A stretch of DNA of 64,000 nt from an uncultured delta proteobacterium (GCA_963810935.1 CAWEPK010000008.1:512001-576000), one strand, 5' to 3'; counted from the stretch's first letter, positions 5,181 to 40,208 are shown. Numbers and translations are program-made. The notes: generated from the letters alone by a model not told the origin.

Positions 5181-5199
5181 AGCAGAGGCGAGGAGGGGG

Positions 5200-6447: not shown

Positions 6448-6480
6448 CCGCTTACCTCTTCAGTATCTTATTGCAGTCCT

Positions 6481-6523
6481 GGGCAGATAGTCCCATCATC
6501 CTGTAAATCGAGCCTATCTGCCC
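6481..6523 (+). terminator. Possible hairpin/terminator after the SBP gene
   Basis: 10-bp inverted repeat GGGCAGATAG...CTATCTGCCC followed by TTT; loop is unusually long. Confidence 0.35.
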
Positions 6524-6810
6524 TTTACACTAGGTCACTTATACCATTTGTAGTCTTCACTATTTTCGGCTTTAAGTAAATTGAGGAAGGAGCCGGCGGG
6601 CAGGAAGCAGTGAAGAATCAAAAAGTGGACTTCAGGAAGAACGGCTTTCTCCGCTCCTCCTCACCAAACGGTGCAGATTACAGCCTGGGCCTCCCATTAT
6701 TACCGCCCTCGCGATTAGTACCGGCATTCGTACGTGGCCGGCGTGGCGCTGTTTTTCTCATAAACGGCTGATCGCCGGGGAGAAGAAATCGTTTTCCTCT
6801 ACAGGCCTTA

Positions 6811-6819
6811 TGCTATAAT
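6811..6819 (+). promoter_or_regulatory. Extended -10 promoter element (TGnTATAAT)
   Basis: TGCTATAAT 32 nt upstream of the 6852 ATG. Confidence 0.5.
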
Positions 6820-6851
6820 CGAGAAAAACATATTCATTTAGCGGGGACCCC

Positions 6852-9826: not shown

Positions 9827-11047
9827 TCAAAGTCTGCCTGTCCCAAAAAAAGCCGATGCAGCTTCCACCACCGCTTGTGCGAACCTGGCGTCTTCTAAAT
9901 TGGCATCCACCTCGACGATCTCTATTTCCTTCCTTAGCTTCTTTCTTAATGTCTTGCAGAAAACAGCGTCTCCTTCCGGGTCATAGGTCGGGCCGCCCGG
10001 CTTGTCTACCGAGGACCAGCCGCGCATAGGCACGAGCACCCGGACAGGCCCTTTCGACCTATTCAATTTGAGGGCGAACGCCTCCGCGATCCGCCTCAAT
10101 TCCTCAGGGCTTGCGCGCAGCCATACCCGGAGCTTGTCCAGCTCGTATCGCGGCCGTCCGTACAACATGCGGCGGGAGCGGGACGGCGTTACATGGTTCA
10201 CGCTGCACGTCGACACGATTTGGGGGATGCCGCGGGCCCCCGCCGACTCCAGCCTCCCGGGCCCGGCGTCCCGTGCGAAGCCGTAGAGGTTCTCGCCCAC
10301 GCCTCCCGTCGCCAGGTCTATCACGCCCCGGAACATCCCCGACGCAATCATCTCCTCCATGGCGCGGTCGCCGGCGCCGTTGGCATGGAACCCGACGACC
10401 TCGCAGCCCGCCTTCTCCAGGGCGGACCGGACGAAGCTCGCGCACCTTTCACAGGGGCTCATCGTCGTCATGGCTAAGGCATTGCCTGCACCGGCCCAGG
10501 TATCGGCAACGCGCCGGCACGGCATGGCGCGCACGGCGTACGCCGCCCTTTCGAGGACGCTGCGCACGGGGTTGGAAAGACCTGCTATCTCGACTACGGA
10601 GTTGAACAGTATAATATCGCTCGTTTTAGGGAAAAAGCCGGAAAGTCCGCGCATGGCTGCGACGGACGAGACCATAAGCTTCGGGAAGCCGAACGGAAGG
10701 GCCTGCATCACCGCCGCAATCATAGATGTCCCGGTATAGCCGCCTATGCCGGTGATACCTTCGATCTTCCTTTCAGCCATCAGCCTTGATGCGATGCGCG
10801 AAGCTCCGACGATCATCGTCTCCATGTTTGAGGCCATGTTTCCGGAGCCGTTCAACGCTTTAAGGCTGCGTCCGCCGGCCCGCGCCACCTCGCTTGCTGT
10901 GATGTCCGCCTTGAAAACCGGCTTTCCGCAGCGCGTGGACAGGTCCATCGACAGAGACTCCGAGCCGAGGGCCTTCAGTTCCCCGTGCAGGTAGAGCGCT
11001 TCGGCGCCCTTCGTATCCATCGTGGCGAGGAGCAGGACAGACTTCAT
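9827..11047 (-). CDS. UPF0261 / Tm-1-like ATP-binding domain protein (copy 1)
   Basis: LLATMDTKGAE, ALPFGFPKLMVSS, FHANGAGDRAMEE, VIDLAT and GPGRLESA motifs; ATG at 11047 overlaps the upstream TGA (ATGA). Confidence 0.9.
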   Translation of the reverse strand: MKSVLLLATMDTKGAEALYLHGELKALGSESLSMDLSTRCGKPVFKADITASEVARAGGRSLKALNGSGNMASNMETMIVGASRIASRLMAERKIEGITGIGGYTGTSMIAAVMQALPFGFPKLMVSSVAAMRGLSGFFPKTSDIILFNSVVEIAGLSNPVRSVLERAAYAVRAMPCRRVADTWAGAGNALAMTTMSPCERCASFVRSALEKAGCEVVGFHANGAGDRAMEEMIASGMFRGVIDLATGGVGENLYGFARDAGPGRLESAGARGIPQIVSTCSVNHVTPSRSRRMLYGRPRYELDKLRVWLRASPEELRRIAEAFALKLNRSKGPVRVLVPMRGWSSVDKPGGPTYDPEGDAVFCKTLRKKLRKEIEIVEVDANLEDARFAQAVVEAASAFFGTGRL

Positions 11048-11668
11048 ATTTGTACGTACTTCCATGAGACGGATGCCTTCCGTATCTTCCCTATGGGGAG
11101 GTCGGCGAAGTGGCCCCTGTCACGTAGATACTCGACGTTCGGCCTCCCGTCATCCGTGAAGGAAGGCAGCATGGCGTCGTCCTCTCCGTTGAACGGGACC
11201 GGGGTCACGCGCACCTTACGGCAGTAAGCGTTGTCGTAAGTGGGGGTCGCCTTGACCCATCGGCCGTCTATGTACAGGTCGGCCAGGCCGTGATACGCGA
11301 ATACGTTGCTCCCTCTCTTCAGAACAAGCTCCGGGGGCGTCAGGTGCGCGCGTATCTCCGCGAACCTGAGCCTCGCGGGTATGCCCGCGCAGCGCGCCAG
11401 AGCGGTCAGCAGGACCGCCTTCTGGACGCAGTAGCCTTCTCCGGCTGCAAGCACGCGGCTTGCCTTGAAGTGGGAATCGGTGGGCCTCTGCGCATAGACG
11501 TTATACCTGATCCCGTCCCTCACGAACAAGAAGAGGCGGACGGCCTTTTCCTTCGCGCTGCTGAGGCCGGTCGTCAGGCTCATCGGTCCTCCGGCAGACG
11601 TCCGGGTGGCCGCAATCGATAAAAAAGGTCGGCCGCAGGTAACGCTCTCTGCCTGTAAGTCTGCTCAA
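11044..11668 (-). CDS. Transglutaminase-like (Cys-His) domain protein, split by a +1 frameshift near 11585
   Basis: YLRPTFFIDCGHPDV (frame of ORF 11501-11713) joins to FVRDGIRY...GYCVQKAVLLTALARCAGIPARL...YHG...WVKATP; TTG at 11668 overlaps the upstream TGA. Confidence 0.82.
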
Positions 11669-12033
11669 TCCTCCACCAGCGTAAGGGCGTTCGGGGCGCA
11701 CCACTGCACGCACTGCGGGTTAGGCGGCTCTCCGCAGAAGTCGCACTTGAGCGGGATGCCCGTGTCGGGTTCCTTATAGACCGATTTCGACGGGCACGAG
11801 GCCCGGCAAATGACGCAGCCGTCCACCTCGACGCCCTCCAGCATGCGGACGCCTTCCGAATTACAGGCGGCCTCCGTGTACGGGCCCGCGATGACGGGCA
11901 GGCAGAACTCCTCGCCCACGAATACCCTGATGCGCGACCGCCACGGGTTGACGGCCCCCGTGTGGGCCAGCGAACAGGCGATCTCGCACTGCTTGCAGCC
12001 GGTGCATACCTTATGGTCTATCTTTATCTTCAT
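11665..12033 (-). CDS. Poly-[4Fe-4S] ferredoxin-like subunit, BamC-like
   Basis: CTGCKQCEIAC, NPWRSRIRV, AGPYTEAAC, CVICRASCPS, EPDTGIPLKCDFC and CVQWC. The CRASCPS...EPDxGxPLKCD pattern is what I recall for BamC of class II benzoyl-CoA reductase (to be verified by alignment). Confidence 0.85.
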   Translation of the reverse strand: MKIKIDHKVCTGCKQCEIACSLAHTGAVNPWRSRIRVFVGEEFCLPVIAGPYTEAACNSEGVRMLEGVEVDGCVICRASCPSKSVYKEPDTGIPLKCDFCGEPPNPQCVQWCAPNALTLVED

Positions 12034-13847
12034 TCCGGGTCCGATCCTTCTTTGTCCAGCCCGATTTTATGGAGCTTCTCTTTGGTGGGCGCGCCTTTTT
12101 CGTCCCATTCCCTCAACCGGTAGTATTCGACGAGCAGCTTATCAAGCTCCACGACCCGGTTCTTCACGCGGGGCTCTTTGAGTATCCTCGGCGGCAGGGA
12201 GTCATCCTCGCCCGTGAGGCCTGCCCTCATATTGAAAAGGCGCTCGAGATTCCAAATCTTCTCTCCTAGCCTGTTGACCCCGTCCTGCGTGTATGCGGTG
12301 CCGGTCACGTACGTCAGCCACTCGGCGAGCTTCTCGCCCCAGAGCGGGCCATGGTAGACGATCCAGCAGAGTATCCCCGAATCGGCGGCCGCTATATAAT
12401 CCTGGTCCTTCTTCGTAAACTCTACAAAGCGGGCGGGGTCTTTCCGTCCCTCGTAGAACGGCATGGTCGATTTCGTGTGCGCGCCTCCCGTATTGGAGGT
12501 GGCGTACTGCAAGCCGAGCGCGTCGAACGCCTGCGGGTGCCAGGCCGGTATGCCCATGCCCTTAACGCCCATGAATAACTCCGGGTGGCCGTATCGCCCG
12601 GCAAAAGCCAGCCCGCCTTCCGCCATGAGGTCGCCGATCCCCTCCCTGTGGGCTATCTGCTTGAGCAGTTGGAACATGTTCGTGCTTCCGAATTCGAGCG
12701 GGTAGCCGAGGTCTTTTTCGGGCAGGTGGCCCTCCTCGAAAAGCTCCATGGCGCAGGAGACCATCGCCCCCGTCGTGATCGTATCCATGCCGAGCTCGTT
12801 GCACAGGTAATTGGCCCTGCAGATGTCCTCCATCTGCCCGAGACCGCAGTTCGCCCCCATAAGGGCCATCGTCTCATGCTCCGGCCCTTTTGCCGTCAAC
12901 GGGTATTCCGGGTCCTTGATGCGGCTCCTTTTCCCGCATGAGAAGGGGCAGGAGAAGCAGGCCTCGTCGCGCACCCGGATCAGGTCCCTGATCACCTCGG
13001 GGTCCTCATACTTCACGAAATCTTCGGAGTATCCCGATTTGAAATTGAACGCCGCCTGGCTCTTGCTTGCGTTCGCCCGGCCGGGCAGCGACCAGGTGCC
13101 GTATCTCCTACGCTTGTAGAATTCGCCGTTCTCGCGGGCTTCCTTGTAAAACTCCATGACCGCCTTCCGGAAGCCCTCCACGTCGGCGATGTTGACCGGT
13201 CCGGTCCCCAGGGCGGCCACCGCTTTGAGGTTCTTCGACCCCATGACCGCCCCCAGGCCCGAGCGTCCGGCGGCCCGCCCGCCGTCCGACATGATGCACG
13301 CGAACCTCACCATGTTCTCGCCGGCCGGGCCTATGTCGGCTACGCCCATGCTGTTGAGCGCCCAGTTATCGAAGCCGTATCTCTTTCTCATGTCTTCCCG
13401 GATCGTCTTTTCCGTATCCGCGGAGAGTTTGCCCCACAGGTGACCGGCCGGCAATATCTCCACCCGCTCGTTATTGATCGTCACGTAAACGGGCTCGGGC
13501 GACCTGCCCTCGAAGATAAGGAGGTCGTAGCCGGAATATTTCAGGTTCGATCCGAAATAGCCGCCGCAGCACGGACTCGACACGCAGTTGCTTAAGGGCG
13601 ACTTGGCGGAGACGATAAAGCGGCTTGCCGCCGGGGCCCCGCTTCCTGTCAGGGGGCCGGTGGAAAAGATAAGCTTGTTCGCCGGGCTTAAGGCGTCGAT
13701 CGCGGGGTCCACCTCATCGAAGAGTATCCTGCCGCACATGCCTCTGCCGCCGATGTAGTCGCTCATCAGGTAGGCCGGCAGCTCTTCTGTGCGGACTGTT
13801 GCCGCGGACAGGTCGATCCTCAGTATCTTCCCGTGCCACCCGAACAT
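12030..13847 (-). CDS. aor: Tungsten-containing aldehyde:ferredoxin oxidoreductase (AOR) family enzyme
   Basis: GKILRIDLS, IGGRG, KSPL, IGPAGEN, AAGRSGLGAVMGSKNLKA, CFSCPFSC, GPEHE, NELGMD, GGAH, DSGILC and ERLFNMRAG; 605 aa. Confidence 0.93.
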   Translation of the reverse strand: MFGWHGKILRIDLSAATVRTEELPAYLMSDYIGGRGMCGRILFDEVDPAIDALSPANKLIFSTGPLTGSGAPAASRFIVSAKSPLSNCVSSPCCGGYFGSNLKYSGYDLLIFEGRSPEPVYVTINNERVEILPAGHLWGKLSADTEKTIREDMRKRYGFDNWALNSMGVADIGPAGENMVRFACIMSDGGRAAGRSGLGAVMGSKNLKAVAALGTGPVNIADVEGFRKAVMEFYKEARENGEFYKRRRYGTWSLPGRANASKSQAAFNFKSGYSEDFVKYEDPEVIRDLIRVRDEACFSCPFSCGKRSRIKDPEYPLTAKGPEHETMALMGANCGLGQMEDICRANYLCNELGMDTITTGAMVSCAMELFEEGHLPEKDLGYPLEFGSTNMFQLLKQIAHREGIGDLMAEGGLAFAGRYGHPELFMGVKGMGIPAWHPQAFDALGLQYATSNTGGAHTKSTMPFYEGRKDPARFVEFTKKDQDYIAAADSGILCWIVYHGPLWGEKLAEWLTYVTGTAYTQDGVNRLGEKIWNLERLFNMRAGLTGEDDSLPPRILKEPRVKNRVVELDKLLVEYYRLREWDEKGAPTKEKLHKIGLDKEGSDPE

Positions 13848-13848
13848 A

Positions 13849-14298
13849 TCAACCCCCGCCTGGACGGCCTGAATGCGTCTCTGCGTCCCGGAACGGACCG
13901 AGCGCCCTCACCGACTCCGTCATGCCGTTGACGATGCCCGCGAAGCGCAGCCCTTCCGATGCCGACACCCAGTCGAGCCGCACCCTCTCATCCTCTACCC
14001 CGAACTGCTCGAGCACCCTTTTCAGGAGCGCCATCCTGACGGCCGTCTTGTAGTTCCCTTCCAGGTAGTGGCATTCTCCCGGATGGCACCCGAGCACGAG
14101 CACCCCGTCGGCCCCGGCCTGAAGGGCTTCGAGGACAAAGGAAGGCTCGACCCTCCCGCTGCACATTACGCGGACGATCCTGATGTTCGGGGCGTACTGG
14201 GTCCTGGACGTGCCCGCCAGGTCGGCCCCTGCGTAGGAGCACCAGTTACAACTGAAAACGAGTATCTTCGGCTCGAACTGCTTCACCTGCTGCCTCAC
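13849..14298 (-). CDS. mvhD: MvhD/FlpD-type [2Fe-2S] subunit (BamF-like, all-Cys)
   Basis: FSCNWCSYAGADLAG, RVMCSGRV, GCHPGECHY and WVSASEG. GTG at 14298 overlaps the hdrA TGA. Confidence 0.92.
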   Translation of the reverse strand: MRQQVKQFEPKILVFSCNWCSYAGADLAGTSRTQYAPNIRIVRVMCSGRVEPSFVLEALQAGADGVLVLGCHPGECHYLEGNYKTAVRMALLKRVLEQFGVEDERVRLDWVSASEGLRFAGIVNGMTESVRALGPFRDAETHSGRPGGG

Positions 14299-17200
14299 GC
14301 GTCGAAGGCGGCGTGGATCTCCGCCAGGATCTGTTCCGTGGTGAAATGTTTTCCCTTCATTGCTCCGCCGGGACAGGCGGCCACGCAGACGCCGCACCCC
14401 TTGCAGAGCGCCTGGTTGACGTAGGAAACGCCTTTTTCTTCATCCTTCCGCACGGCGTCGTAGGGACACACCGCCTCGCAAACGCGGCACCCGCTGCAGC
14501 GCGATTCGTCCACCTGCGCCACGGCGGCCTGTCCCTCTATGCTCCCGCGCGTCAATACGGCAAGCGATCTCGATGCGGCGGCCTCGGCCTGGGCGATGCT
14601 CTCGTCGATGAATTTGGGACTGTGAGCGGCGCCGCACATGAAGATGCCGTCCGTCGAGAAATCGACGGGGCGCAGCTTCATGTGGGCCTCAAGGAAAAAG
14701 CCGTCCTCGTTCAGCGGGACCTTGAGCATCTGCGAGAGCGCCCGGTTTGCATCCGGCGCGACGGTGGCCGCGGCCAGGCAGACGAGGCCCGCGTCGAGCT
14801 GTATCTTACGGCCGAGGACAGGCTCGGTCACTGTCACCCTCAGGAAAGACTTCCCCTCCTCTTCCACGGCCGCGATATCAGGAGGGTCCTCCGGCTGGTA
14901 GCGGATAAAGACCACCCCTTCGTCCGAGGCCTTCCTGTAATAATCCTCCTTGAACCCGTACGTCCTCATGTCACGGTAGAGGACGTAGATGTCCATGTCG
15001 GGTCTCAGTCCCTTCAGCTTCAGCGCATCCTTTACGGAGTGCGAGCAGCAGACGCGGCTGCAATAGGGCCTTTCGTCATTTCTCGACCCGACGCACTGGA
15101 TAAAAACGGCCGCTTCGGTCTCCTTCACGCGGCCGGCGTCTTTCTCGATCATCTCATCGAGCTCCAGGAGCGTGACGACCCTCGGGTCCCGGCCGTACAG
15201 GTATTCGCCGGGTCTATGCTCCCCCGCGCCCGATGCCACTATGGTAACGCCGTGCTCTACCTGCCTCGGCGTATCGCTCCCCGCCACGCCGATCTTCGAC
15301 GAGAAGTTGCCCACGTAGCCCGAATGCTCCAGCAGCTCCGCGCCCGTAACGACCTCGATCATCTCCGTTGCGCGGACCTCCGAGACGAGGCGGTCCACCA
15401 GCGCGGCCACGTTGCCCCCCTCCAGCGTCTCGGGTATCCTCGCCGCCAATCCTCCCAGCTCGTCATTCTTTTCGATCAGGTGGACCTTGATGCCCTGGCG
15501 CGCCAGGGCCAGGCCCGCGGTCATACCGGCGACCCCGCCGCCGACAACCAGCGCCGCCTTCGTCACGCCGTATTCCGCCCGGTAAAGAGGCTGGAGTAGC
15601 AGGGCCCTTGCGGCGGCCATCCTGACGAGGTCCTTCGCCTTGCCAGTCGCGACCGCCTTGTCGCCCATATGGACGAAGGAGCAGTGCTCCCGGATATTGG
15701 CGAACTGGAAAAGGAAGGGGTTGAGACCGGCCTCTCTCAACGTGTCCTGAAAGACCGGCTCGTGGGTCCTGGGCGTGCATGCGGCCACTACGACCCTGTT
15801 GAGTCCCTCTTTCTTTATGGCCTCCACGATGTGCCTTACCGAATCGACCGAGCACGCGAAAGTCTCCTCAACGGCGCACGCTACGCCGGGAAGGTCCTTC
15901 GCGTATTCCACGACTTGCGGGACGCTCACGACCTTCGCGATATTTGTCCCGCAGTCGCATACGAATATGCCTATCCGCGGCTGCTCGCCGCCTACCTCGC
16001 GCTCCGCCGGGTAGACCTTTTCCGCGACCATTGTATGCCGCGCCTCGAAAAGGAGCCTGCGAGGCGAGAGACGCGGCCCCGCTCGCCATGGTGACGGTGT
16101 CCGGGATATCCATCGGGGCGTGGAAAACGCCGCAGGAAAAGATCCCCTTTCTCGATGTCTCCATGGGTGAAAAGTCGGGACTGCGGCAGAAGCCGTGGTC
16201 GTTCAGCTCTATTGCCAGGTTGCCGGCCAGGTCGCGGTTGCCTGCAGAAGGCGCCAGGCCTACGGAAAGGACAACGAGGTCGAACTCCTCATCCCTGACC
16301 CCGCTGCCGTTGACGCGGTACCTGAGCACTACGTTGCCGCTTTCGGCCCCCTCCCCCTTGATAGACGCCTTGGCCCATATGTAGCGCACGCCGGCCATCG
16401 CTTTGGCACGTTCGTAGAAGCGCTCGAAACCCTTGCCGTAGGCGCGGACATCGTTATGGAGGATAACGGCCTCCATCTCCGGATGGTGCTCTTTCGACAG
16501 TATGAGCTGCTTCGTGGCGTACATGCAGCATACGGCGGAGCAGTACGTACAACTCGAGCTTTCGTCACGTGAGCCGACGCACTGTATCCAGGCAATCCTG
16601 TGCGGAACACGGCCGTCGGACGGGCGGCGCAGCTCTCCCCCGTTGGGGCCCGATGCGCTGATCATCCGCTCAAACTCCAGGCTGGTTACGACATTCGGGA
16701 GCCGGTGGTACGCGTACCGGCTCTCCGCCGTGGGATCGAACGTATCGTATCCCGGCGCGAGGACCAGGCACCCGACACGTGCGGTCGTCCTTTTGGGCTG
16801 CATCCTGAAGTCTATGGCCTTGCCCTTACACGTCGGCACGCAGATCTGGCATATCTTCCTTTTCAGGAAAAGGCAATTCCCCGCGTCTATAACGGACACT
16901 GCCGGAACGGCCTGCGGGAAATGCACGTGGATGCACTTCTTTCTCGCCAGTTTTTCGTTGTACGTGTCCGGGACGTAGACGGGGCAGTATTCGGCGCAGG
17001 TGCCGCAGCCCGTGCATTTCTCCTCGTCCACGTAACGCGGCTCCTCGACAAGGCGGACCTCGAAATTCCCCGCCTCTCCCTCTACCCCTTCCACGCGGGT
17101 ATTGGTAAGGATCGTGATATTGGGGTTGGTCGCGCACTCGATAAACTTGGGGGAGAGGATGCACATGGAGCAGTCGTTGGTCGGGAAGGTCTTGTCGAGC

Positions 17201-17364
17201 TGTGACATCTTGCCCCCGATGGCGGGGGACTTATCGACAAGGTAGACCCTGAACCCGGAAGCTGCGGCGTCGAGGGCGGCCTGGATGCCGCCGACGCCCG
17301 CGCCCACGACCATCATCGCCCCGACCTTATCGGAGCGCCCGGGACTTTCAGGCACCGGACTCAT
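14295..17364 (-). CDS. hdrA: Double-module HdrA-family flavoprotein (BamE-like, about 1020 aa), split by a +1 frameshift near 16058
   Basis: Module 1: VVGAGVGG, DKTFPTNDCSMC, inserted ferredoxin, QCVGSRD, CSAVCCMY. Module 2: CDCGTNI, AACTPRTHE, NIREHCS, VVGGGVAG, QCVGSRN, CSRVCC, then C-terminal 2x[4Fe-4S]. Removing one G in CAGGCTC restores SQLLFEARHTMVAEK. Confidence 0.92.
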
Positions 17365-18530
17365 ATCACCTCGCCCACGATCTCCGAGATATCCCTGACC
17401 TCCAGCACGTCCCCCCTTTTCATCGTAAGGACGCTGTCCTTTAAGTTCAGGATGCAGTAAGGGCAGGCCGTAACGATGACTTCGGCTCCCAGGCTTATTG
17501 CCTGCTCGACGAGCGTATCGGAAAAGCGCTCTCCCTTTTTCGTCTCCATCCATATCCTCGCGCCGCCGCCGCCGCAGCACAGGCTGTTCTCCCTGGCATT
17601 CACCTCATCGATCAGCGTGAGGCCGGGAATGGCGGAAAGGACTTTGCGCGGCTCGTCGTAGACGCCGTTGTGGCGCCCCAGGTAGCAGGGATCGTGGTAG
17701 ACGACCCTCTTCGGAAAGGGCCTTTCGAATAAAAGGCGTCCTGCGTCGACCAGACCGGCCAGGTACTGGACGATGTGGACCACTTTGAAATCCGCGCCAA
17801 GCCGGGGATATTCGTTTTTGAACGTCTCGTAGCAGTGGGGCGAGCTGACGATAATCTCGCCGATCCCCGACGCGCGGAACGCCTTTATGTTGGCCGCCGC
17901 GAGGCTGTCGAAAAGCGCGTAGTTCCCCGCCTTCCGCACGCTCTCGCCGCAGCAGTTCTCATCGCTGCCGAGGAGCGCGAAGGCCGCGCCGGTCTGCTTC
18001 AGTATCCCGGCCGTCCGTCGGGCCAGATTCATCATCTTTGTGTCGAAGGCGGGCACGCAGCATGAGAAATAGGCCGTTGTCGCCCCGCCGCCGGGGGCAG
18101 GCAAGTCGAGGCCCGCCGCCCAGTCGGCCCGTTCCTGCCTCGCGCCGCCCCAGGGGTTTCCCGCGCTCTTCAGGCTCGCCATCGCGCTCCTGAGGCTCGC
18201 AGGGACCGCCCTGGCGACGCTCTCCACCGTGATATTGCGGACTGCGCGTATGACGTCCGTTATTGCGACGCCGCGCGGGCAGCGGCTCACGCACGCGTTG
18301 CAGGTTGAGCAGAGCCACCAGTCTTCCTCGCCGGGCTCCACCAGCCCGAACTTAGACTCCGTGATCTTCCTGTGGGGCGTGAAGGTCCGCACGTCGTTCC
18401 AGGGACAGCTCGCCGTGCAGAGGCCGCACTGGAAGCAGTTGCGGAACGCCTCCCCGCCGGCCTCCCTGATCATCTCTATCGCTTCTTTGAAGGGCGCCGT
18501 CGCTTCCGCTGCGGGTTTTTCCCTGCTCAT
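17361..18530 (-). CDS. HdrC/HdrB-type fused Fe-S oxidoreductase with two CCG domains (HdrD/BamD-like)
   Basis: CFQCGLCTASCP, CSTCNACVSRCP, ENCCGES, SSPHCY, YHDPCYLGRHN, LCCGGGG and TACPYC; 389 aa. Confidence 0.9.
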   Translation of the reverse strand: MSREKPAAEATAPFKEAIEMIREAGGEAFRNCFQCGLCTASCPWNDVRTFTPHRKITESKFGLVEPGEEDWWLCSTCNACVSRCPRGVAITDVIRAVRNITVESVARAVPASLRSAMASLKSAGNPWGGARQERADWAAGLDLPAPGGGATTAYFSCCVPAFDTKMMNLARRTAGILKQTGAAFALLGSDENCCGESVRKAGNYALFDSLAAANIKAFRASGIGEIIVSSPHCYETFKNEYPRLGADFKVVHIVQYLAGLVDAGRLLFERPFPKRVVYHDPCYLGRHNGVYDEPRKVLSAIPGLTLIDEVNARENSLCCGGGGARIWMETKKGERFSDTLVEQAISLGAEVIVTACPYCILNLKDSVLTMKRGDVLEVRDISEIVGEVI

Positions 18531-19794
18531 TGGGCTTCCCGTCCGATCCCGCCCCCGCCCGCCATCACCTTGCAGAGCTTACCGCATATGGAATCCGCGA
18601 GCGCCGCGTCGTCCATCGAGCACCCCATCTCGATAATCTCTATTCCGTCCCGTACCTTCAGGTAGCGCTTGAGGCCGTCGATGAAAACCGCGTCCGTCTC
18701 CGGCTCGTAAAGCGGGCCGCCCTCAACGCTCAGGGAAGAAAAACCCTTCAACGGGATGTAGACGAACGTGGGGCCTTTAGCCATGTTCAGCTTTTCGGCG
18801 AACACGCGCGCGATCTCTTCCATCTCGCGCCCTGTCGTCCGGGCCTGGACGCGCATCTCGTCCTGCACGTACAGCTTGCGCTTTTCTATCTCTTTCTCTC
18901 TCCAGAGGGGATCGCTCAGTCTGCGCGTGTAAGGCCCGCAGCTCAGCGCGTCGAACCCGCACGGCGTGAGTATTACGGGAATCCCCCTGCCGACTCCACG
19001 TCGAGCCTGTCGAGGCCCGCCGCGCGGTTGCCCCCCAGCATGGCCTCCGACAGGCCGGCCGGCACGAGGTCTATGACTGCGTCGAAAGCGCCGTCGCCTA
19101 TCATCTCTTCCATGATCCGGTCGCCCACTCCCTGCGCATGGAACGGGATCAATTCGAAGTCCTGCGAGGCGCATTGCGTGCGTACCATTCGGGCGCAGGC
19201 CTCCGAGAAGGCAAACTCGCTTATCGCCACCTGCTTTTTCGGATCGCCCCCGGAGAGCCGTTCCACGCCGGCCACACCGGCGATCATGCCTGCGAACCTG
19301 GCGAGCAGGTCCTTCACGAACCTGTTCAGGCCGTTGATGTCGAGGCATGAATGGAAGATCGCCATGTCCTTATATGCGAAGTAGCGGGCCGCGTAGGCGG
19401 GCATGGCGGCGGAGCTGGAGAGGATGAGCTTGGGAAAGCCGAAAGGCAGGGTCCTCATTACGGAGGAGATAAAAAGCGTATTGGTCGCCCCGCCGAAGCC
19501 GGCAATCGCGTCTATAGCCTTCTCTTTATAAAGCTTCCCGGCGATCTCGATACAGCCCGCCATCATCGGCCCGGTGATCGTCGCCGTGCCTTTGCTGGTG
19601 GATATCTCGTGAAAATCGGCGCCGCCCGAGCGGGCGACCTCGACGCACGTATAGTCGGCCCCCTCCCGGCTGTGCGCCCGCATCGCTATGTCGAGGAGGA
19701 TGACCTTGCAGCCGAGGGCTTCCAGCCGCCCTTTCAGGTAAAAGGCCTCTTCCCCCCTTGTATCGAGGGCCGTCAGCAACAGGACTGCGGACAT
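18527..19794 (-). CDS. UPF0261 / Tm-1-like ATP-binding domain protein (copy 2), split by a 1-nt deletion near 18990
   Basis: MSAVLLLTALDTRGEE, TLPFGFPKLILSS, FHAQGVGDRIMEE and AAGLDRL, continuing in the next frame as GIPVILTPCGFD...IPLKGFS. Confidence 0.85.
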
Positions 19795-19831
19795 GCGCTT
19801 CCCTCTTCGTCTTGCGGGTATCGTCCGGTCT

Positions 19832-20496
19832 CTATAACCCCGGCCCCGAGTCAGCCCCTTGATCAGATAGGGCATCTCGACCCTCCTGGTAGGGGCGAGT
19901 ATCCTGCTCTGATAGTCCGTCACGTATTTCGATTTGAGGGTCCGGGTAAGGCCCCGGTACTCGTCGGTGGCAGCCACTTTCGCGATAGCCTCTATCGTCT
20001 GGCTCGTCCCTTCCACGAGGATGAACGGACCGGAGCCTATCGCCACCTTCCACACGTTCGTCACCCTTATCCCCAACTTTTCCATCCTGGGGACGAACTC
20101 GTTGTCCAGAAAGGTCCTGTAGCCCTTTTCCATGCCCGGGAGGATATTGAAATACTGGTTGAATTTCCAGACGCCGACCTGTACCTCGTATCGCTTGGCG
20201 TCGGCTGTCCCGTACGAGCTGTACAGCCTGCTCGCATAATTCCTGATAAGGGGTGAAAGCCCTTCCATAAGCTCGCTATACCCTTTTGACGTTACCGCCT
20301 TCTGGACCACGCCGGGGTCGTTCGTCGTCGATACGGCGACAATGCGGGGACCGGCGCCGACCACGACGTAGAATGCTCCGATTATCCGCAGCCCCGTTTT
20401 TTCCATGGTCGGTATGTATTTGCCAAGGATGAAGTCTTCGTATTCCTTCTCCTTGTTCTCGACCACGTCCCAGTACGTTGCAAAAAGTATAGCCAT
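19832..20496 (-). CDS. Hypothetical protein with two tandem NIPSNAP/dimeric alpha-beta-barrel-like repeats; 3' end uncertain (reads in frame into the UPF0261 gene)
   Basis: Two similar ~100-aa units: YWDVVENKEKEYEDFILGKYIPTMEKTGLRIIGAFYVVVGAGP and YFNILPGMEKGYRTFLDNEFVPRMEKLGIRVTNVWKVAIGSGP. GGAGGG RBS before ATG at 20496. Confidence 0.65.
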
Positions 20497-20536: not shown

Positions 20537-21580
20537 CTACCTTCGGAAGAGCTGCAGCATAAGGTCGATCACGTATTGCTCGTCCTTTGCCGCCTCTTTT
20601 TTCGTATATTTCGCCCCCCTCGCCTGTACCCAGAAAATGTTCTCGGGAAAGGCAAAGCGCTTGTCGACTACCCATTCCATATCCTGCGGAGCACCGAAAT
20701 GCTCTTCGACTTGCTTGGCGACCCTCACGATCTCGAGTATCTCGGCGTCGTCTATGCACGGCGCCTGCCGGTGTTCCGGCGGCACGTCGCAGAAGACCGT
20801 CCCCTTCTCGCCGTAAACGACCATCTTCGTCTTCTGTCCTATGCTGCGGGACTCGACCGCCATCTCCTTCTTGTGCACGACGAATGAATCGGGCGTTATC
20901 TCCCCGCTGACCACGCTCTCGCCCAACCCGAAATTGCCCTCGACGATTGCCCGGTCCAGGTCCCCGACATTCGGCAGGACGGTCAGTATGACGCCCGCGG
21001 ACTTCGCCTCTATCATCATGATGACGGCGATGCCGATAGGCGCCCAGGAGACGGGCATCTTGTTGTTAAGCCGAAAGGCTATAGCCCTGGTCGTAAACGC
21101 GCTCCCCCATACCTTCTTTACGTGCTCGATGACCGCGTCCGTTCCCTGCACGTTGAGATAGCTCTCCATCTGACCGGGCATACTGACGGCCCCACTGGAA
21201 CGGACGGCGCAGGCCACGTCAGGCATCGCGACTTGTTCCTCCAGCCGCCTGTAATACATGTCGATCGACCGGCCGAGGTCGGGCGGCATGGACGCGCCTT
21301 CGATTACCTCGCGTATCCGCCCGCTTACCTCGATCAGCCGGTCAACGTCCCGGTCCATGTCTACTCCGCCGGCCAGCCTATCATCGACTATGCGGCCCAC
21401 CTCCCGGCCGAGGCCGGTGGCGTCCATGAAGTGCTCGTACGCCTTCACCGAAAGCGCAAACCCGTGCGGTACCCGCAGGCCCAGCTTTTTCATCTCGCCC
21501 AGGTTTGCGCACTTCTTGCCTACCAGGTCGTTGTATTCTTTCGAGAGCTCGTCCAGCCAGTAGATTTCCTTTGCTTCCAT
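20537..21580 (-). CDS. Stand-alone PEP-synthase ATP-grasp domain (PPDK_N), phenylphosphate synthase beta-subunit (PpsB)-like
   Basis: VGKKCANLGEM, VPHGFAL, AVRSSG, GQMESYLNV, GNFGLGESVVSG, PQDMEW and VQAR; 347 aa with no phospho-His or pyruvate domain. Confidence 0.88.
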   Translation of the reverse strand: MEAKEIYWLDELSKEYNDLVGKKCANLGEMKKLGLRVPHGFALSVKAYEHFMDATGLGREVGRIVDDRLAGGVDMDRDVDRLIEVSGRIREVIEGASMPPDLGRSIDMYYRRLEEQVAMPDVACAVRSSGAVSMPGQMESYLNVQGTDAVIEHVKKVWGSAFTTRAIAFRLNNKMPVSWAPIGIAVIMMIEAKSAGVILTVLPNVGDLDRAIVEGNFGLGESVVSGEITPDSFVVHKKEMAVESRSIGQKTKMVVYGEKGTVFCDVPPEHRQAPCIDDAEILEIVRVAKQVEEHFGAPQDMEWVVDKRFAFPENIFWVQARGAKYTKKEAAKDEQYVIDLMLQLFRR

Positions 21581-23328: not shown

Positions 23329-24081
23329 CTAGTGCATTGCCCTACCGCCATTGACCAGTATGGTCTGGCCCGTTATAAAGTCCGCTGCATCCGACGACAG
23401 GAATACCGTGACCCCCACGATATCCTCCGGCATACCGACTCGTCTGAGAGGGGTTTTTGAGACGTCGTACTTCGTCACGTCGGCGATGGTCCTGCTGGCC
23501 TCGGTGTCCGTGAAACCGGGGGCCACCGCGTTGACGGTGACGTTGTCCGGCCCCAGCTCGGCGGCGAGCGCCCGCGTCAGGCCCAGGACGCCGCCTTTCG
23601 ACGCTACATAGTGAACGAAGCCGTTCGAGCCCGTGAAACATGTTTCCGACGATATGTTTACGATCTTGCCTTTTCCCTGCGCCTTCATATAGGGGTAGAC
23701 GGCCTTCGTGCAGAGCCACGGCCCCTTGACGTTGATGGCCATCATACGGTCCCATTCCTCGACCGTTATCGCCGTGAAGGCCTTGCGCTCGACCCCGAAG
23801 TAATAACCGGCGTTATTGACGAGCACGTCGATCCTGCCGAACTTCTCCACGGTCGCCTGGGCCATACCCTTCAGGCCCTCCGCGTCGGTTACGTCGGCCC
23901 GGAACCAGATGCACTCGCTGCCTTTCGCCGATATCTCTTCCGCCGTCTTTCTGACACCCTCCACGTCTATGTCGCTGAGTGCCAGCCTCGCTCCCTCTTC
24001 GGCGAAGGCCATCGCGAACGCCCTGCCCAGGCCCTTCGCTCCGCCCGTGATAACAGCAACCTTTCCCTCCAAGAGTTTCAT
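23329..24081 (-). CDS. Short-chain dehydrogenase/reductase (SDR)
   Basis: TGGAKGLG, NNAG, NISS, YVASK and TGQTILVNGG; acidic residue after beta-2 (LSDID) suggests NAD preference. Confidence 0.95.
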   Translation of the reverse strand: MKLLEGKVAVITGGAKGLGRAFAMAFAEEGARLALSDIDVEGVRKTAEEISAKGSECIWFRADVTDAEGLKGMAQATVEKFGRIDVLVNNAGYYFGVERKAFTAITVEEWDRMMAINVKGPWLCTKAVYPYMKAQGKGKIVNISSETCFTGSNGFVHYVASKGGVLGLTRALAAELGPDNVTVNAVAPGFTDTEASRTIADVTKYDVSKTPLRRVGMPEDIVGVTVFLSSDAADFITGQTILVNGGRAMH

Positions 24082-24118: not shown

Positions 24119-24982
24119 TCAGGCGACCTTCACCAGAAAATCCCCCCGGTCCAAGCCTGTCTGCCTGGCCAGGGGACGGCACTTGATTTTCAGCATGTAA
24201 ATCGCCTTCTTCCCCTGCGCCTCGCCCATCAGCGATTCATAGCTCCCGGTACCCTTGACGACGAGCAGGTCGCTCTCCAGGAAAGCCTGCTGCGCCCTCG
24301 TCTCTCCCTGTCCGGGCACGAAGACCTTGTCCGTCGTAACTACCTCGTCGACCGTATCTTCGAGGCCGAAGAAAGCGGCATCCTCGACGGTGGCGTCCTC
24401 GAAAAAGACGGGCTCCTTCACCACGAGCGTCACTCTCACGCCCATCTCCTTCATCATCCCGATGAGGAGCGAGTCGAAACCGATCTCGCCGGCGTTGTCC
24501 GTCACGTAAAAAACGCTTTGCGCCTCCCGGACCGCCTCGTACGGGTCTCCCACGACAACCGGGGGTGCGAGTCTCTCCTCGATGATGCCCGCCGCATCCG
24601 CGAAGGTGAAAGTCTCCGAGGGCCGGCCGATGGGCGCAATGTTGGCGGCCGCCGCGAGAAAACAGGCCCTTTCGAGCCTCTCCTTTGTCGTTTCTCCGTT
24701 CTTTATATACGCGCCTGCCGCATCGAGTAACTCCATCGCGCGGGCATCGGCGCCCTTCTTGAACTCATTCCAGAAATCGGGTGCCGGAGTCACGAATTCG
24801 TAGACAAGGGCAACTGCCCGGTTGCACAGACAGGCGAGGTTCGACGTGTCCGTTATCTCCTCCGAGACGAAGTCGATGACCTTCCGGAACAACCGGGGAC
24901 TGTCCCGGTCCCCGCTCCCAGCGGCGGCCCTTCCGTAAACCCAGCCAAGCAGGCAAACGCCGCATTCAAGCTCGGGCTTCAT
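24119..24982 (-). CDS. DUF89/ARMT1-like metal-dependent (damage-control) phosphatase
   Basis: N-terminal ECGVC, AAAANI, YVTDNAGEIGFD, EDAT, KGTGSYES and LKIKC. Confidence 0.8.
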   Translation of the reverse strand: MKPELECGVCLLGWVYGRAAAGSGDRDSPRLFRKVIDFVSEEITDTSNLACLCNRAVALVYEFVTPAPDFWNEFKKGADARAMELLDAAGAYIKNGETTKERLERACFLAAAANIAPIGRPSETFTFADAAGIIEERLAPPVVVGDPYEAVREAQSVFYVTDNAGEIGFDSLLIGMMKEMGVRVTLVVKEPVFFEDATVEDAAFFGLEDTVDEVVTTDKVFVPGQGETRAQQAFLESDLLVVKGTGSYESLMGEAQGKKAIYMLKIKCRPLARQTGLDRGDFLVKVA

Positions 24983-25007: not shown

Positions 25008-26693
25008 TTACCAGCCGCGCTCTTCCCAGGGCCTGTACTTCAGGTCGAAATCCTTCGCGATGAGCTTGTAGCAATTGTAGCTGCTGCCCCGCCCTATGCC
25101 GTGCGCCGGGTGGCACGCCATGCCGGCCATGTAGTAGTTCCTGATAGGCATGCGCTGCCCCGAAAGCTCCGGCATCGGCCTGTTTCTCCCGGAACATTCG
25201 TAATGCGCGTCGAGACCGCCCCACCCGCCCTGCGGCATGCACGGGTTCCTGTTAACCACGTCGTCGGGGGTGGCTATCCAGCCGCCGATAAAGTTCTCTT
25301 TGGTCACGTTTGGGGCGTACTTGCCCCATTCGGCGACCATCCTGACCTCTATCTCCCTCTTCATCCTCAGCCAATCGCGCTCGCTGAAGTTCCTCCAGGG
25401 ACACGTAAATTCTTCAACGAGGGCCGCGAACCTGCCTTCAGGCGCGCGCGTCCTGTCCCACTGGACGTCCGGGGCGACGAGAAGGTAGAGCTTGTCGGCT
25501 ATGCCCTTGGCCCAGCGCTCCTGCTGGTAACGGCCGCTCAGGAAATATTCGGGGTCCGCCTCGCCGAAATAGAGCCTCGGGACGAGCCCCAGCTCCGGGT
25601 TCTGCGGGTATTTGGGCGGCTCCATCAGGGCAATGTTGCCCCAGAAAAGTTGTGTCCTTTCATAGCCCTTGTCGTCGTAAAGCGATTCCGGTCTTTCCTT
25701 CAGCCTCTGCCCCTTTGCCCAGACGTCGGCGGGCCAGTTGTCCCTGCCCGCAACGTCCATCGTCAGCTCGGTATTCAGGTCGCTCACGACCAGGTCGGCC
25801 AGGATCTTATTCCCGTCGGCCAACTCGACCCCGTAGGCCTTGTTGTTATCGACAAGCACCCTCTTCACTTCATTAAGGACGAAGAACTCGCCGCCATATT
25901 GCTGGAAGGCCCTGAGCAACGCATGGGTGATGCTATGGGTGCCGCCCGTCACTATGGCGGCCGCGTCCATCGACAGGATCAGGCCCAGCGCATGGATGTG
26001 CCAGTAAGGGCCCGGCCTGTCCTGCGGGAAGAAGCCCGTGGACGTCTGGATCGCCCTCATATAGAACGTCTGCATCTCCGGGCTTTTGAATAACGTCGTA
26101 GCGATATGGCCGACCGTCCCGAACGCGATATCCGGGTCGAGTCCGTCTTTCGGGTCGTCGGCAAGGGCCTCCAGCGGGTCGGGACCGTCCGGCCATTCGG
26201 CCGGCCCGGTGAAGCGGTACTTGTGCCAGGCCGACCGCCACCTGGTCTTGTACCTCCTGATTATCTCCTCGACGGTGTTGGCGTCGTCCTTGTTGATCTT
26301 GGCCACTTCCTTGATTGTGTAATCGGCGGCCGCCTCGGAGAATTCCGCCCTGCCGCTTATGGGGTCGACAACCGGGAAGATGGTCTTGCCGAGGATATAG
26401 TTGCCGTCCGGATATATCCATGCCTCGTTGTTCTCCGGGAAGAGGTAAACGAGGCCGTAGTCTCTCAAGTTGAAGTCCTGGTATGCCGGGTTCGTGTAGA
26501 ACCGCGTGAAGTGGGCGCACACATTCTGGATGAAGCCGGGCAGCGGAAGCTCCTCACCGCATGCGCCGCCGCCCATCTCGTGCCACCGCTCGAACATGGC
26601 CGTCTTGAGCCCCGCCCTCTGAAGGTAGCAGGCGATGATCGTAGCGTGGTGGCCGCCCCCGACTATGACGGCATCGTATTTCTTATCTGGCAT
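25008..26693 (-). CDS. Phytoene-dehydrogenase-family (COG1233) FAD-dependent oxidoreductase, subunit B
   Basis: YDAVIVGGGHHA..., ERWHEMGGG, GGTHSITHAL, APEG, TPDD and RMPIRNYYMAGMACHPAHGI. Confidence 0.88.
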   Translation of the reverse strand: MPDKKYDAVIVGGGHHATIIACYLQRAGLKTAMFERWHEMGGGACGEELPLPGFIQNVCAHFTRFYTNPAYQDFNLRDYGLVYLFPENNEAWIYPDGNYILGKTIFPVVDPISGRAEFSEAAADYTIKEVAKINKDDANTVEEIIRRYKTRWRSAWHKYRFTGPAEWPDGPDPLEALADDPKDGLDPDIAFGTVGHIATTLFKSPEMQTFYMRAIQTSTGFFPQDRPGPYWHIHALGLILSMDAAAIVTGGTHSITHALLRAFQQYGGEFFVLNEVKRVLVDNNKAYGVELADGNKILADLVVSDLNTELTMDVAGRDNWPADVWAKGQRLKERPESLYDDKGYERTQLFWGNIALMEPPKYPQNPELGLVPRLYFGEADPEYFLSGRYQQERWAKGIADKLYLLVAPDVQWDRTRAPEGRFAALVEEFTCPWRNFSERDWLRMKREIEVRMVAEWGKYAPNVTKENFIGGWIATPDDVVNRNPCMPQGGWGGLDAHYECSGRNRPMPELSGQRMPIRNYYMAGMACHPAHGIGRGSSYNCYKLIAKDFDLKYRPWEERGW

Positions 26694-26724
26694 ATCGAAC
26701 CTCCTTGGGATCGTTCTTCATTCA

Positions 26725-27135
26725 TCACCTGCTCGGGATAGGCCGCGGGCCCTGGCTCGGTATGGGCTGCGGTCCCGCTTTCGCGGCCGAGGGGGCCGTC
26801 ACAGGAGGGGCCTGGGGTTGCAGGCCGCCCGCGGAAGCCTCTTCAAGCGGCGGGTAGACCGGAGATTTTGAAAAAAGGAACTTTATTCCACGCATGATCA
26901 GGACCGGGTTTTTAAGGACCGTCCAGACCATATGCCTGAGGTCGCCTGGATCCACGAAGGCCCTGACCGTCCAATGGACGGGGTGTTGGATCTCCATGAC
27001 CATCAGCATGCGCATCGGCTCGGCCGCACCGTTTGCGGGCGGCTCCAGCGTCGAAGGCACCATCCCGGTAGTCTCAATCGCGGCTATCCGTCCGCGAAGC
27101 AGCGTCCTGCCCAACCCTGTAGATCGTATGAACAT
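26725..27135 (-). CDS. Small hypothetical protein between the two COG1233 genes
   Basis: 136-aa ORF with AGGAGG RBS, filling the gap between the two flavoprotein genes on the same strand; Pro/Ala-rich tail. Confidence 0.7.
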   Translation of the reverse strand: MFIRSTGLGRTLLRGRIAAIETTGMVPSTLEPPANGAAEPMRMLMVMEIQHPVHWTVRAFVDPGDLRHMVWTVLKNPVLIMRGIKFLFSKSPVYPPLEEASAGGLQPQAPPVTAPSAAKAGPQPIPSQGPRPIPSR

Positions 27136-27153
27136 CCCGCCCTCCTGACAGTT

Positions 27154-28979: not shown

Positions 28980-29933
28980 ATGAACATAAATCTGAACCAA
29001 CTCAAGGCTTTTTACCTCGTTGCAAAGAACGGAACCTTCTCCAAAGCTGCCGATGAATTGTTCGTTACCGAGCCTGCGGTTTTCGTCCAGGTGCGCACGC
29101 TTGAGCGGTGCCTCGGGCTGAAGCTCCTCGATAAATTCGGAAAGGACCTGCGGCTTACGGAGATCGGGAGGCTGCTTTACGGGTACGCCGGCAGGATTTT
29201 CAGCATAGTCGATGAGGCCGAAACGGCGATAAAGGACATCGGGGCGCTCAATAAGGGGGAGCTGAGGGTTGGGACCACAAGCACCCTTGCCGAATATCTG
29301 CTGCCCCTCATACTCCCCGCTTTCAGCGCAAGCCACACGAAGGTCCAGGTGTACCTCGAAGAGACGAACTCCGGCCAACTGGTGAAAGGCGTCCTTGCGC
29401 ACCAGTATGAAATGGCTATCGTGGCAAGGGTAGCCTACCCCGACACTATCGAATACACGACGCTGAGCAGAGATGAAATCCTTCTCGTCGCCTCGCCGGA
29501 CGACAGCCTCGCACAGAAGCAGCGGTGCTCGCTCAAGGAGCTGAACGGTTACCCGATGATATGCCGCGACGTGAAATCTGCGACGAGGCAAGCGGTATGG
29601 AAAGAGTTCGTGAAGAGAGACATCAAGCCCTCCGCTGTCATAGAGGCAGCCAATACGGAGTTGATCAAGAGGCTCGTGGCGAGCGGCAGGGGCGTCTCTC
29701 TCCTTTCGGAGGTATGCGTCAAGAAAGAGATAGAGCGCGGCGAGCTGGCCGCCATACCCATTGCTGAAGGGCCTTTCTTCCTCGATATCGACGCGATCTA
29801 TCTGAGGGGCAGGACGTTATCGCCCGCGGCGGCTTCCTTCCTCAGCTTTCTCCTTAAAACAGGCACATCGGAAAACCTGAACCACTTCGTGGGGGTTATG
29901 AAGGGTAGGAAACCCCTGGTCGCTTTATCCTGA
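28980..29933 (+). CDS. LysR-family transcriptional regulator
   Basis: NLNQLKAF...TFSKAADELFVTEPAV...LRLTEIG HTH and GELRVG substrate-binding domain; divergent from the operon. Confidence 0.95.
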   Translation: MNINLNQLKAFYLVAKNGTFSKAADELFVTEPAVFVQVRTLERCLGLKLLDKFGKDLRLTEIGRLLYGYAGRIFSIVDEAETAIKDIGALNKGELRVGTTSTLAEYLLPLILPAFSASHTKVQVYLEETNSGQLVKGVLAHQYEMAIVARVAYPDTIEYTTLSRDEILLVASPDDSLAQKQRCSLKELNGYPMICRDVKSATRQAVWKEFVKRDIKPSAVIEAANTELIKRLVASGRGVSLLSEVCVKKEIERGELAAIPIAEGPFFLDIDAIYLRGRTLSPAAASFLSFLLKTGTSENLNHFVGVMKGRKPLVALS

Positions 29934-40143: not shown

Positions 40144-40171
40144 TATCCTCGGCCGTATCCATCCTCGGATC

Positions 40172-40200: not shown

Positions 40201-40208
40201 AAATTTCC

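Follow-up and report, generated by a model that had tools for sequence, protein, structure and literature searches.

Our analysis of a 64,000-nucleotide stretch of DNA from an uncultured delta proteobacterium (GCA_963810935.1, CAWEPK010000008.1:512001-576000; hereafter the window) revealed a five-gene operon that resembles the BamCDEF chassis of class II benzoyl-CoA reductase (BCRII) but encodes another tungsten-containing catalytic subunit (W-subunit) in place of BamB. We propose, with a probability of about one half, that the five products form a complex which oxidises a phosphate-tagged aromatic aldehyde and confurcates the electrons with those of an electron-transferring flavoprotein (ETF), so that BCRII would in effect be run in reverse. 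The genes are as follows.

17361..18530, minus strand: HdrC/HdrB fusion of BamD type, 389 amino acids (aa), Pfam CCG and Fer4; predicted high-potential port, probably ETF-docking
14295..17364, minus strand: fused double HdrA of BamE type, about 1022 aa, with an NCBIfam HdrA match for each half
13849..14286, minus strand: MvhD adaptor, 145 aa, GTG start, all-Cys, Pfam FlpD 185 bits
12030..13847, minus strand: W-subunit, the putative catalytic tungsten oxidoreductase (WOR), 605 aa, AFOR_N/AFOR_C
11665..12033, minus strand: BamC-type three-cluster ferredoxin subunit, 122 aa, E 5e-31 to BamC 4z3w; predicted low-potential wire

The junctions from HdrC/HdrB to the small subunit are -4, +8, +1 and -4 bases. 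An earlier reading of this DNA from the sequence alone (the sequence-only reading) had described five close-packed genes here, and our analysis bore this out, including the sizes of the HdrC/HdrB fusion and of HdrA. The motifs it had listed, CRASCPS..EPDTGIPLKCD, GPEHE and GGAH, are all present in the window proteins; MvhD contains Cys only and no selenocysteine, as it had said, and the operon holds no BamGHI/NuoEFG, no NuoE/F-like gene being found there. HdrA appears in the window as two open reading frames (ORFs), split by one extra base near 16056. This base is missing from 3/3 DNA runs mapped to the region, which indicates that the gene is intact; HdrA as a pseudogene was thus ruled out, the frameshift being an assembly error. 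Indels at 18993 and 19827-19849, which break a UPF0261 gene upstream of the operon, were likewise corrected in 3/3 runs, and one at 11577, which breaks a transglutaminase-like gene downstream, in 2/3. These runs may include the source sample, and they correct the assembly rather than support it independently. One RNA run (X7) covered 9/30 bins of the region, in short pieces only. The arrangement is not due to chance, since it was found again in 86 distinct loci (collapsed from 103), which are kin and not independent of one another.

The W-subunit scored 467 bits against WOR1 of A. mobile (9MQX) and 453 against the aldehyde oxidoreductase (AOR) of P. furiosus, versus 202 against BamB. For comparison, the real BamB of this genome scored 1115 bits to BamB, and a canonical Hdr-linked AOR (L174) 709 to WOR1. 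Its AlphaFold model (pTM 0.90) gave TM scores of 0.88-0.90 to AORs versus 0.78 to BamB. In a tree of 79 rows, PDB reference sequences not being among them, the window protein and 22 relatives formed one group with 100% SH-aLRT support and a long stem, among AOR-like rows. Forcing this clade to join BamB was modestly rejected by the approximately unbiased (AU) test (p-AU 0.039, 29 rows).

Residues were counted over 121 clade proteins, that is, the 120 best of 5222 matches plus the query. According to the accessible part of PMC12096430, the second-shell residues of AOR are Thr243, Glu313, His448, Tyr312, Tyr427 and Tyr452. The aldehyde-oxidiser core was found to be kept, with Thr243 and Glu313 in 121/121 and His448 in 120/121 (Thr251, Glu325 and His457 of the window protein), and the Glu and His of P. 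furiosus AOR, to which the sequence-only reading had pointed, are thus both in place. The three Tyr are replaced: Tyr312 by His in 121/121 (window His324), Tyr427 by Trp in 121/121 (Trp436), and Tyr452 by Thr in 118/121 (Thr461). The [4Fe-4S] ligands of the window protein are Cys297, Cys300, Cys304 and Cys494. At the column of the BamB ligand Cys322, the clade has Ala in 102, Thr in 18 and Leu in 1 of 121 proteins, with no Cys, and the Zn-site residues of BamB were not found in the W-subunit. Both the tree and this column place the W-subunit outside the BamB clade, as had been expected. Its earlier description as "classical AOR-type" is not supported in that wording; because the three Tyr are replaced throughout the clade, the W-subunit is, as judged from its sequence, neither BamB nor a classical AOR, and it belongs to a distinct derived clade with a remodelled second shell.

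Five basic residues (Arg246, Arg257, Lys306, Arg307, Lys320) are invariant in the clade; the corresponding residues of AOR-like rows are Leu, Ile, Arg/Gly, small or acidic. The AOR cavity is called hydrophobic in the accessible part of PMC12727526, which lists no residues for it. The invariant Cys94 was considered as a tungsten ligand and judged unlikely, as its counterpart in P. furiosus AOR directly follows Asn93, which binds Mg. The nearest outgroups of the clade were two: L180 (G307) shares Arg246, Trp252 and Arg257 and has no adjoining small subunit, and L222 (G093; 51-55%, frameshifted) has a COG1233 gene on one side and a BamC-type gene on the other. The genome also has a TupA-like gene beside a permease; a partial stretch of it scored 224 bits, where the cut-off is 400.

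Analysis of the other subunits showed that they follow the BCRII pattern. The small subunit is nearer to BamC (110.6 bits to 4z3w) than to AorA (58.7 bits to 8c0z), in agreement with the sequence-only reading, and it grouped with BamC (100/100) apart from seven four-cluster subunits with 16-17 Cys. Of the refuting outcomes named in that reading, the two that sequence comparison can address, a W-subunit within BamB and a small subunit no closer to BamC, did not occur. It has 12 cluster Cys and one more, and three [4Fe-4S] clusters are predicted. The three-cluster subunit tracks the Hdr genes, while four-cluster loci had them in 0/7 stretches examined. In the accessible part of a preprint (bioRxiv 10.64898/2026.04.10.717634), the BCRII markers are given as Lys280 and Cys59-Cys62 of BamE and as His230, Trp325, Tyr356 and a Cys-to-Ser change at the distal cluster of BamD; BamD docks ETF, and electrons from the tungsten site of BCRII reach ETF in vitro. 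Marker residues of both proteins, which an earlier assignment to a BamD/BamE-like chassis implied, are present in the window. The HdrC/HdrB fusion has His232, Trp327 and Tyr358 with the BamD spacing (95 and 31 residues), and S-P-H-C where C-x-x-C is expected, that is, a disrupted distal cluster as in BamD. Among matched motifs of the clade loci, this Trp occurred in 48/48, Tyr in 47/49 and Ser in 46/46. HdrA of the window has Cys65-Cys68 and Lys285 at the BamE positions, and the clade loci have Cys-x-x-Cys in 49/49 and Lys in 53/53 matched motifs. In the HdrC/HdrB tree, BamD of this genome fell in a group (99% SH-aLRT) with 11/13 clade rows; in the HdrA tree, the clade formed its own 100% group, whose branching relative to BamE was not settled. 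The second motif position of MvhD was Cys in 43/43 matched motifs of the clade loci. MvhD of the window is 76-85% identical to that of Mvh-type or minimal loci and 59-66% to FlxD of Flx-type loci, and by these identities it is of the hydrogenase-linked subtype.

A BamC-type gene follows the W-subunit gene in 82 of the 83 loci with enough flank. The gene just upstream (n=78) was FlxA-like in 36, HdrA in 21, a hydrogenase protease of an MvhDGA operon in 13, MvhD in 5 and a short-chain dehydrogenase (SDR) in 3. FlxABC-like or MvhGA genes were found in 49/78 loci, and MvhD was kept in 54/78, with or without them. Of the 50 loci of at least 12 kb, 47 had HdrA, 37 a phenol-kinase homologue (PpsA/B 29, MarK-type 23), 32 a COG1233 flavoprotein, 25 an SDR, 18 an EMO-like gene, 17 ETF, 11 ARMT1 and 10 a PaaK-like gene; NuoE/NuoF-like genes (BamGHI-type input) and BamB were each found in none. 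The clade was present in 17/41 relatives and in 5/401 genomes of the phylum, own genome included, with three candidates scored per genome. The relatives with names, at 79-85% identity, are mostly Syntrophorhabdales metagenome-assembled genomes, and the host is probably related to this group. The window operon is a reduced form: in relatives, Flx or Mvh hydrogenase genes separate MvhD from the W-subunit gene. The genome has paralogous Mvh and Flx loci at other sites. In five genomes with reduced operons, neither the Mvh nor the FlxB proper to the clade was found in a new place; for Mvh only paralogues of 66-67% were seen, and for FlxB only matches of <=40%.

Beyond the clade, HdrA was found in 19/24 other stretches around three-cluster subunits with non-BamB WORs, several of them with a canonical AOR site. 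This suggests that BCRII-like complexes form a wider, undescribed set, of which the window is one distinctive member. L168 and L179 (G058, G135) have a non-BamB WOR with a degenerate site (PTYLA) and no Glu313 motif, followed by BamC-type, HdrA, MvhD, HdrC-like and NuoE/NuoF-like genes, which is an almost complete BCRII chassis, BamGH-like input included, with yet another W-subunit. In L167, L177 and L178 (G210, G180, G078), two different pairs of WOR and BamC-type genes flank one HdrA, and both W-subunits are strongly diverged. Altered sites (LDYET, PPFDPR, GAYHL) were seen in the BamC-type-linked WORs of L157-L159, L161 and L164, with Hdr genes in some only.

The operon lies in a catabolic gene cluster with phenol-kinase homologues, which narrows its function. 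The surrounding genes are as follows.

9827..11065, minus strand: UPF0261/MarK-type aromatic kinase homologue, 412 aa, 187 bits to MarK 9MPY
11044..11583, minus strand: transglutaminase-like protein, Pfam Transglut_core, true start further upstream; found next after the small subunit gene in the majority of close relatives
18527..19791, minus strand: second UPF0261/MarK-type gene, split/fused by indels, Pfam UPF0261 and UPF0261_C
19790..20496, minus strand: conserved protein of about 220 aa with an internal repeat, no NCBIfam match, conserved beside kinase genes
20537..21580, minus strand: PpsB/HpeI-like ATP-grasp subunit of a two-component dikinase, Pfam PPDK_N, sole copy in the genome
21603..23288, minus strand: PpsA/HpeH-like swivel subunit, predicted phospho-His518, Pfam PEP-utilizers, RPH structures nearest
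23329..24081, minus strand: SDR, candidate alcohol dehydrogenase, Pfam adh_short; only broad SDR subfamilies pass the cut-off
24119..24982, minus strand: ARMT1/DUF89 phosphatase, candidate aryl-phosphate phosphatase, Pfam ARMT1-like_dom
25008..28794, minus strand: phytoene-dehydrogenase-like flavoprotein pair, CtmAB-like, 561 and 546 aa, sharing 24% identity, with a 136-aa ORF between them
28980..29933, plus strand: divergent LysR-type regulator; the LysR-like gene of relative L032 matches it at 51%

The phenol kinase MarK belongs to the UPF0261 family (PMC12624787, accessible part). The window protein at 9827..11065 keeps the D-T-K motif and the His219 equivalent but not Gly195 or His304. A split dikinase is described for HpeHI, CreHI and PpsAB in the parts seen of PMC12167813 and PMC9618137; the window dikinase was likened to these by architecture and phospho-His only. 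Atlas neighbours of the PpsA-like protein include a "putative phenylphosphate synthase subunit A". The PpsAB-like pair is the genome's only one, and a PpsA orthologue was found in 16/17 relatives with the W-subunit clade. L033 and L075 have no intact PpsAB and keep MarK-type genes, and the distant subgroup mostly has PpsAB only, which suggests that phosphorylation matters more than the enzyme that performs it. CtmAB oxidises a methyl group of limonene, as given in the accessible part of PMC4109377; the flavoprotein pair was likened to it by family, size and pairing, not by alignment, and its NCBIfam CrtO/crtI_fam scores are below or near the cut-off. PDB and Atlas searches gave no substrate name for the flavoprotein, the SDR or the PpsA-like protein, and the Pfam scan found no P450 among the cluster ORFs, where the COG1233-type pair is present instead. 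No phenylphosphate carboxylase was found in the genome (93% complete), in which five UbiD proteins score below the PpcA/B cut-offs and a sixth, by a UbiA-like gene, was not scanned; canonical phenol carboxylation was therefore rejected for this genome.

Some further genes were seen in the window. Beyond LysR, at 29953-31141, lies a third UPF0261-like gene in two frames, with a 60% orthologue in L036 and L037. On the opposite strand, 2265-8873 encodes a fused 2Fe-2S/Mo protein of the xanthine-oxidase family (971 aa), a branched-chain-type binding protein and a probably secreted 673-aa protein with no Pfam match; none of the three was seen complete in related clusters. Genes for hydrogenase maturation, similar to HypF and HypE, are located at 37804-42520, 19 kb from the operon.

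We then looked at the upper cluster in genomes that lack the clade, where 38 stretches were examined. In 12 such genomes (best match to the clade <=43%; completeness 78-100%), another aldehyde-type enzyme is found in the cluster. In six of these (G013, G019, G033, G278, G388, G233) it is a Mo aldehyde oxidoreductase of MOP-like type, with fused 2Fe-2S and Mo parts and 64-100% identity to the G019 copy; its nearest structure is the Desulfovibrio aldehyde oxidoreductase 1SIJ (592 bits, versus 333 for HBCR; NCBIfam 811, cut-off 1100). In G033, only PpsB, ARMT1 and MarK fragments lie on the MOP-like contig, and in G013 the MOP-like gene is about 4.5 kb from the cluster. The other six (G223, G194, G378, G119, G326, G272) have a stand-alone WOR; the five full-length ones all possess the canonical Thr/Glu/Tyr/His/Tyr site, and no small subunit lies near any of them. 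The Mo aldehyde oxidoreductase and canonical AOR families have aldehyde oxidation as their common reaction. The MOP-type clusters L242 and L243 keep ETF and EMO and have no Hdr genes, which indicates that the flavoprotein itself produces the reduced ETF. No clear slot occupant was seen in the stretches from G008, G034, G037, G290, G397 and G401.

We propose that the complex would perform the third oxidation step in an oxygen-free side-chain oxidation of a phenolic compound. The phenolic hydroxyl would be phosphorylated by the PpsAB-type or MarK-type kinase, an alkyl, probably methyl, side chain oxidised by the CtmAB-like flavoprotein with reduction of ETF, and the aldehyde formed by the SDR. 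The W-subunit would then convert the phosphorylated, anionic aldehyde to the acid, which the phosphatase would free for CoA ligation. Low-potential electrons may pass from tungsten through the BamC-type wire to HdrA, and the high-potential electrons of reduced ETF may enter via the BamD-type subunit; the HdrA flavin would merge both streams and pass them through MvhD to NAD+ (Flx) or to protons (Mvh hydrogenase). In this genome, where MvhGA is lost from the operon, a paralogous hydrogenase or Flx would need to act in trans. With redox potentials supplied by hand, the merged reaction was estimated at -29 to +26 kJ per 4 e-, and ETF alone to H2 at +38 to +60 kJ. The merged reaction is near equilibrium, and therefore thermodynamics does not settle the direction.

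The proposal draws on the retained Thr/Glu/His core, the aldehyde oxidoreductases that replace the block in 12 genomes, the ETF and EMO kept in MOP-type clusters, the docking of ETF by BamD, the phenol-kinase homologues, the lack of a phenylphosphate carboxylase match in the genome, the energy estimate, and the five basic residues that stand in place of hydrophobic or neutral ones of AOR. Several points weigh against it. The Arg/Lys set was placed by alignment, and its position in the channel is hypothetical. The alternative WORs do not have this set, so that a phosphate tag need not require it. The Tyr-to-Trp change at 427 accompanies a lack of aldehyde activity in WOR4, as reported in the accessible part of PMC12096430, although the same part describes GAPOR and WOR5 as oxidising aldehydes despite altered shells. 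In 21/78 loci HdrA abuts the W-subunit gene and MvhD is absent; the mid-potential port would therefore be gone there unless it is shared in trans. EMO, in 18/50 long loci, offers another exit for ETF electrons. Five loci (L041, L045, L105, L152, L153), besides three more fragments, contain both the clade and an alternative WOR, and the own genome and G021 have a 64-65% MOP orthologue elsewhere; the replacement is thus not exclusive. The close genomes G008 and G034 have the upper cluster, and in them no clade member and no close orthologue of MOP was found.

One alternative, which we consider possible but doubtful, is that the complex runs forward as BCRII does: H2 (Mvh) or NADH (Flx) would be bifurcated at HdrA, ETF would take the high-potential electron and the tungsten site, supplied with electrons of very low potential, would perform a reduction so far unseen in its family, for example reductive removal of a phosphate-activated phenolic oxygen, ring reduction of an aryl phosphate or conversion of an acid to an aldehyde. 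In the complexes in which they have been characterised, Flx and Mvh serve as donor modules, and the hallmarks of BamC, BamD and BamE are all kept. The loss of three active-site Tyr, with the Trp seen in WOR4, would also suit a reductase, as would the canonical WOR beside the clade in some loci, as if the two did different steps, and ETF or EMO in 17-18/50 long loci; the energy estimate allows either direction. However, the W-subunit possesses neither the Cys ligand nor the Zn-site residues of BamB, and two unrelated kinds of aldehyde oxidoreductase replace the block in 12 genomes. Moreover, neither alternative enzyme was found in six relatives that have the clade (G003, G004, G024, G030, G032, G039), and the donor port, hardly dispensable for a driven reduction, is absent from 21/78 operons. 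The specific form in which H2 or NADH feeds the BCRII chassis, so that the remodelled tungsten site is driven to cleave the C-O bond of a phosphate-activated phenol or to dearomatise it, is quite improbable. If true, it would be a second kind of tungsten reductase working beyond the ferredoxin redox window and a biological counterpart of aryl-phosphate deoxygenation.

It is also conceivable, but unlikely, that the enzyme is an uncoupled aldehyde oxidoreductase, with electrons flowing from tungsten through BamC, HdrA and BamD to ETF and menaquinone, or via soluble ferredoxin to a separate Flx-Hdr or Mvh-Hdr complex. The 21/78 loci without MvhD, many with ETF and EMO, would suit such a path, and stand-alone enzymes can fill the slot. 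The flow from tungsten to ETF in BCRII was uncoupled in vitro according to the accessible part of the preprint, and this genome, which has dsrA and a futalosine-type UbiD-like gene, may respire. On the other hand, the bifurcation markers are invariant (Cys-x-x-Cys 49/49, Lys 53/53), MvhD is kept in 54/78 loci, and the three-cluster subunit tracks the Hdr genes, which were seen in 0/7 of the four-cluster stretches examined. An ordinary paralogue of class II benzoyl-CoA reductase is hardly credible: its partners are of BamC, BamD and BamE type, but the W-subunit scores 202 bits to BamB versus 1115 for the genome's real one, has Ala, Thr or Leu at the Cys322 column in 121/121 and was modestly separated from BamB by the AU test (p = 0.039), and a canonical bamBCDEFGH locus lies elsewhere in the genome.

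Compared with BCRII of Geobacter metallireducens (Bam[(BC)2DEFGHI]2; 4Z3W), the operon shares the three-cluster wire, an HdrBC fusion with a blocked heterodisulfide site, a fused double HdrA that carries the Lys and the Cys pair of bifurcation, an MvhD-type adaptor, a tungsten enzyme at the low-potential end and, in many loci, ETF/EMO nearby. It differs in that another W-subunit, without a Cys ligand, takes the place of BamB, that BamGHI is absent (50 long loci) with Flx or Mvh hydrogenase instead, and that MvhD is 145 aa and Cys-only whereas BamF has selenocysteine and an extension of more than 100 residues; gene context and slot replacement here point to oxidation rather than ring reduction. 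With AOR sensu stricto and the clade-87 WORs (P. furiosus 1AOR, A. mobile WOR1 9MQX, A. aromaticum 8C0Z, C. autoethanogenum 9G7J) the W-subunit shares the fold, the pterin and [4Fe-4S] ligands, Thr243, Glu311, Glu313 and His448, but not the three Tyr; it has the new invariant Arg/Lys, a three-cluster instead of a four-cluster small subunit and an Hdr module instead of WorABC/WorN. The WorABC (Bfu) module and four-cluster WorS of class IV WOR (WorABCSL) were not found here. Like the Flx-Hdr and Mvh-Hdr complexes, these loci combine HdrA, HdrBC and MvhD with FlxABC-like or MvhGA genes (49/78), but the HdrB site is BamD-like and not of the heterodisulfide kind, and a tungsten enzyme is wired in place of free ferredoxin. 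The clustering of a dikinase or MarK-type kinase with phosphatase, dehydrogenases and CoA ligase is common to the Cre (4-cresol, Corynebacterium glutamicum), Hpe/Acv, MarK and PpsAB-Ppc systems; a P450 methyl hydroxylase is a feature of the Cre-type pathway. Here no P450 or carboxylase is found among the cluster genes, which instead include the CtmAB-like flavoprotein, ETF and the block of tungsten enzyme and Hdr.

A 2026 classification of WORs holds, in its accessible part, the Hdr-like subunits BamD/E to be unique to BCR, clades 62-63 (PMC13328260). We found no description of this operon in the literature, a statement that leaves aside most subscription papers and unread supplements, and the cluster is not described in the accessible parts of two papers on benzene activation (PMC13101534, PMC13416013). 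The presence of BamC/D/E-type wiring with another tungsten enzyme, and with a third port that swaps between Flx, Mvh and nothing, suggests a chassis that can be reused as a platform. Should it operate in reverse, syntrophs and sulfate reducers would gain a soluble means of lifting ETF electrons to H2 or NADH through aldehyde oxidation, with no need for membrane-driven reverse electron transport. The complex might also serve as a smaller model for Hdr-type bifurcation, which, according to the accessible part of the BCRII preprint, was not measurable in coupled form there, and the cluster points to an undescribed anaerobic route for alkylphenols or lignin-type monomers in peat and sediments.

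Other loci of the same genome (G000) were also seen. The MOP-like Mo aldehyde oxidoreductase at L197:8798-11443 (contig C7), 64% identical to the G019 copy, adjoins a UbiD gene, an SDR and a TRAP transporter. Genes similar to bamH at 99.8-100% occur on three contigs and bamG-like genes on two (among C1, C8, C10 and C12), and dsrA gave identical match scores on two contigs; these repeats might reflect duplication or redundancy of the bin (7% contamination). A second bamBC (L066) is frameshifted and lies beside moeA. The canonical locus, bamB-C-D-fdhD-E-F-G-H, is at L065:570-11580 (contig C12), and in its BamE the second Cys codon of the Cys-x-x-Cys pair is replaced by an in-frame TGA, probably for selenocysteine.

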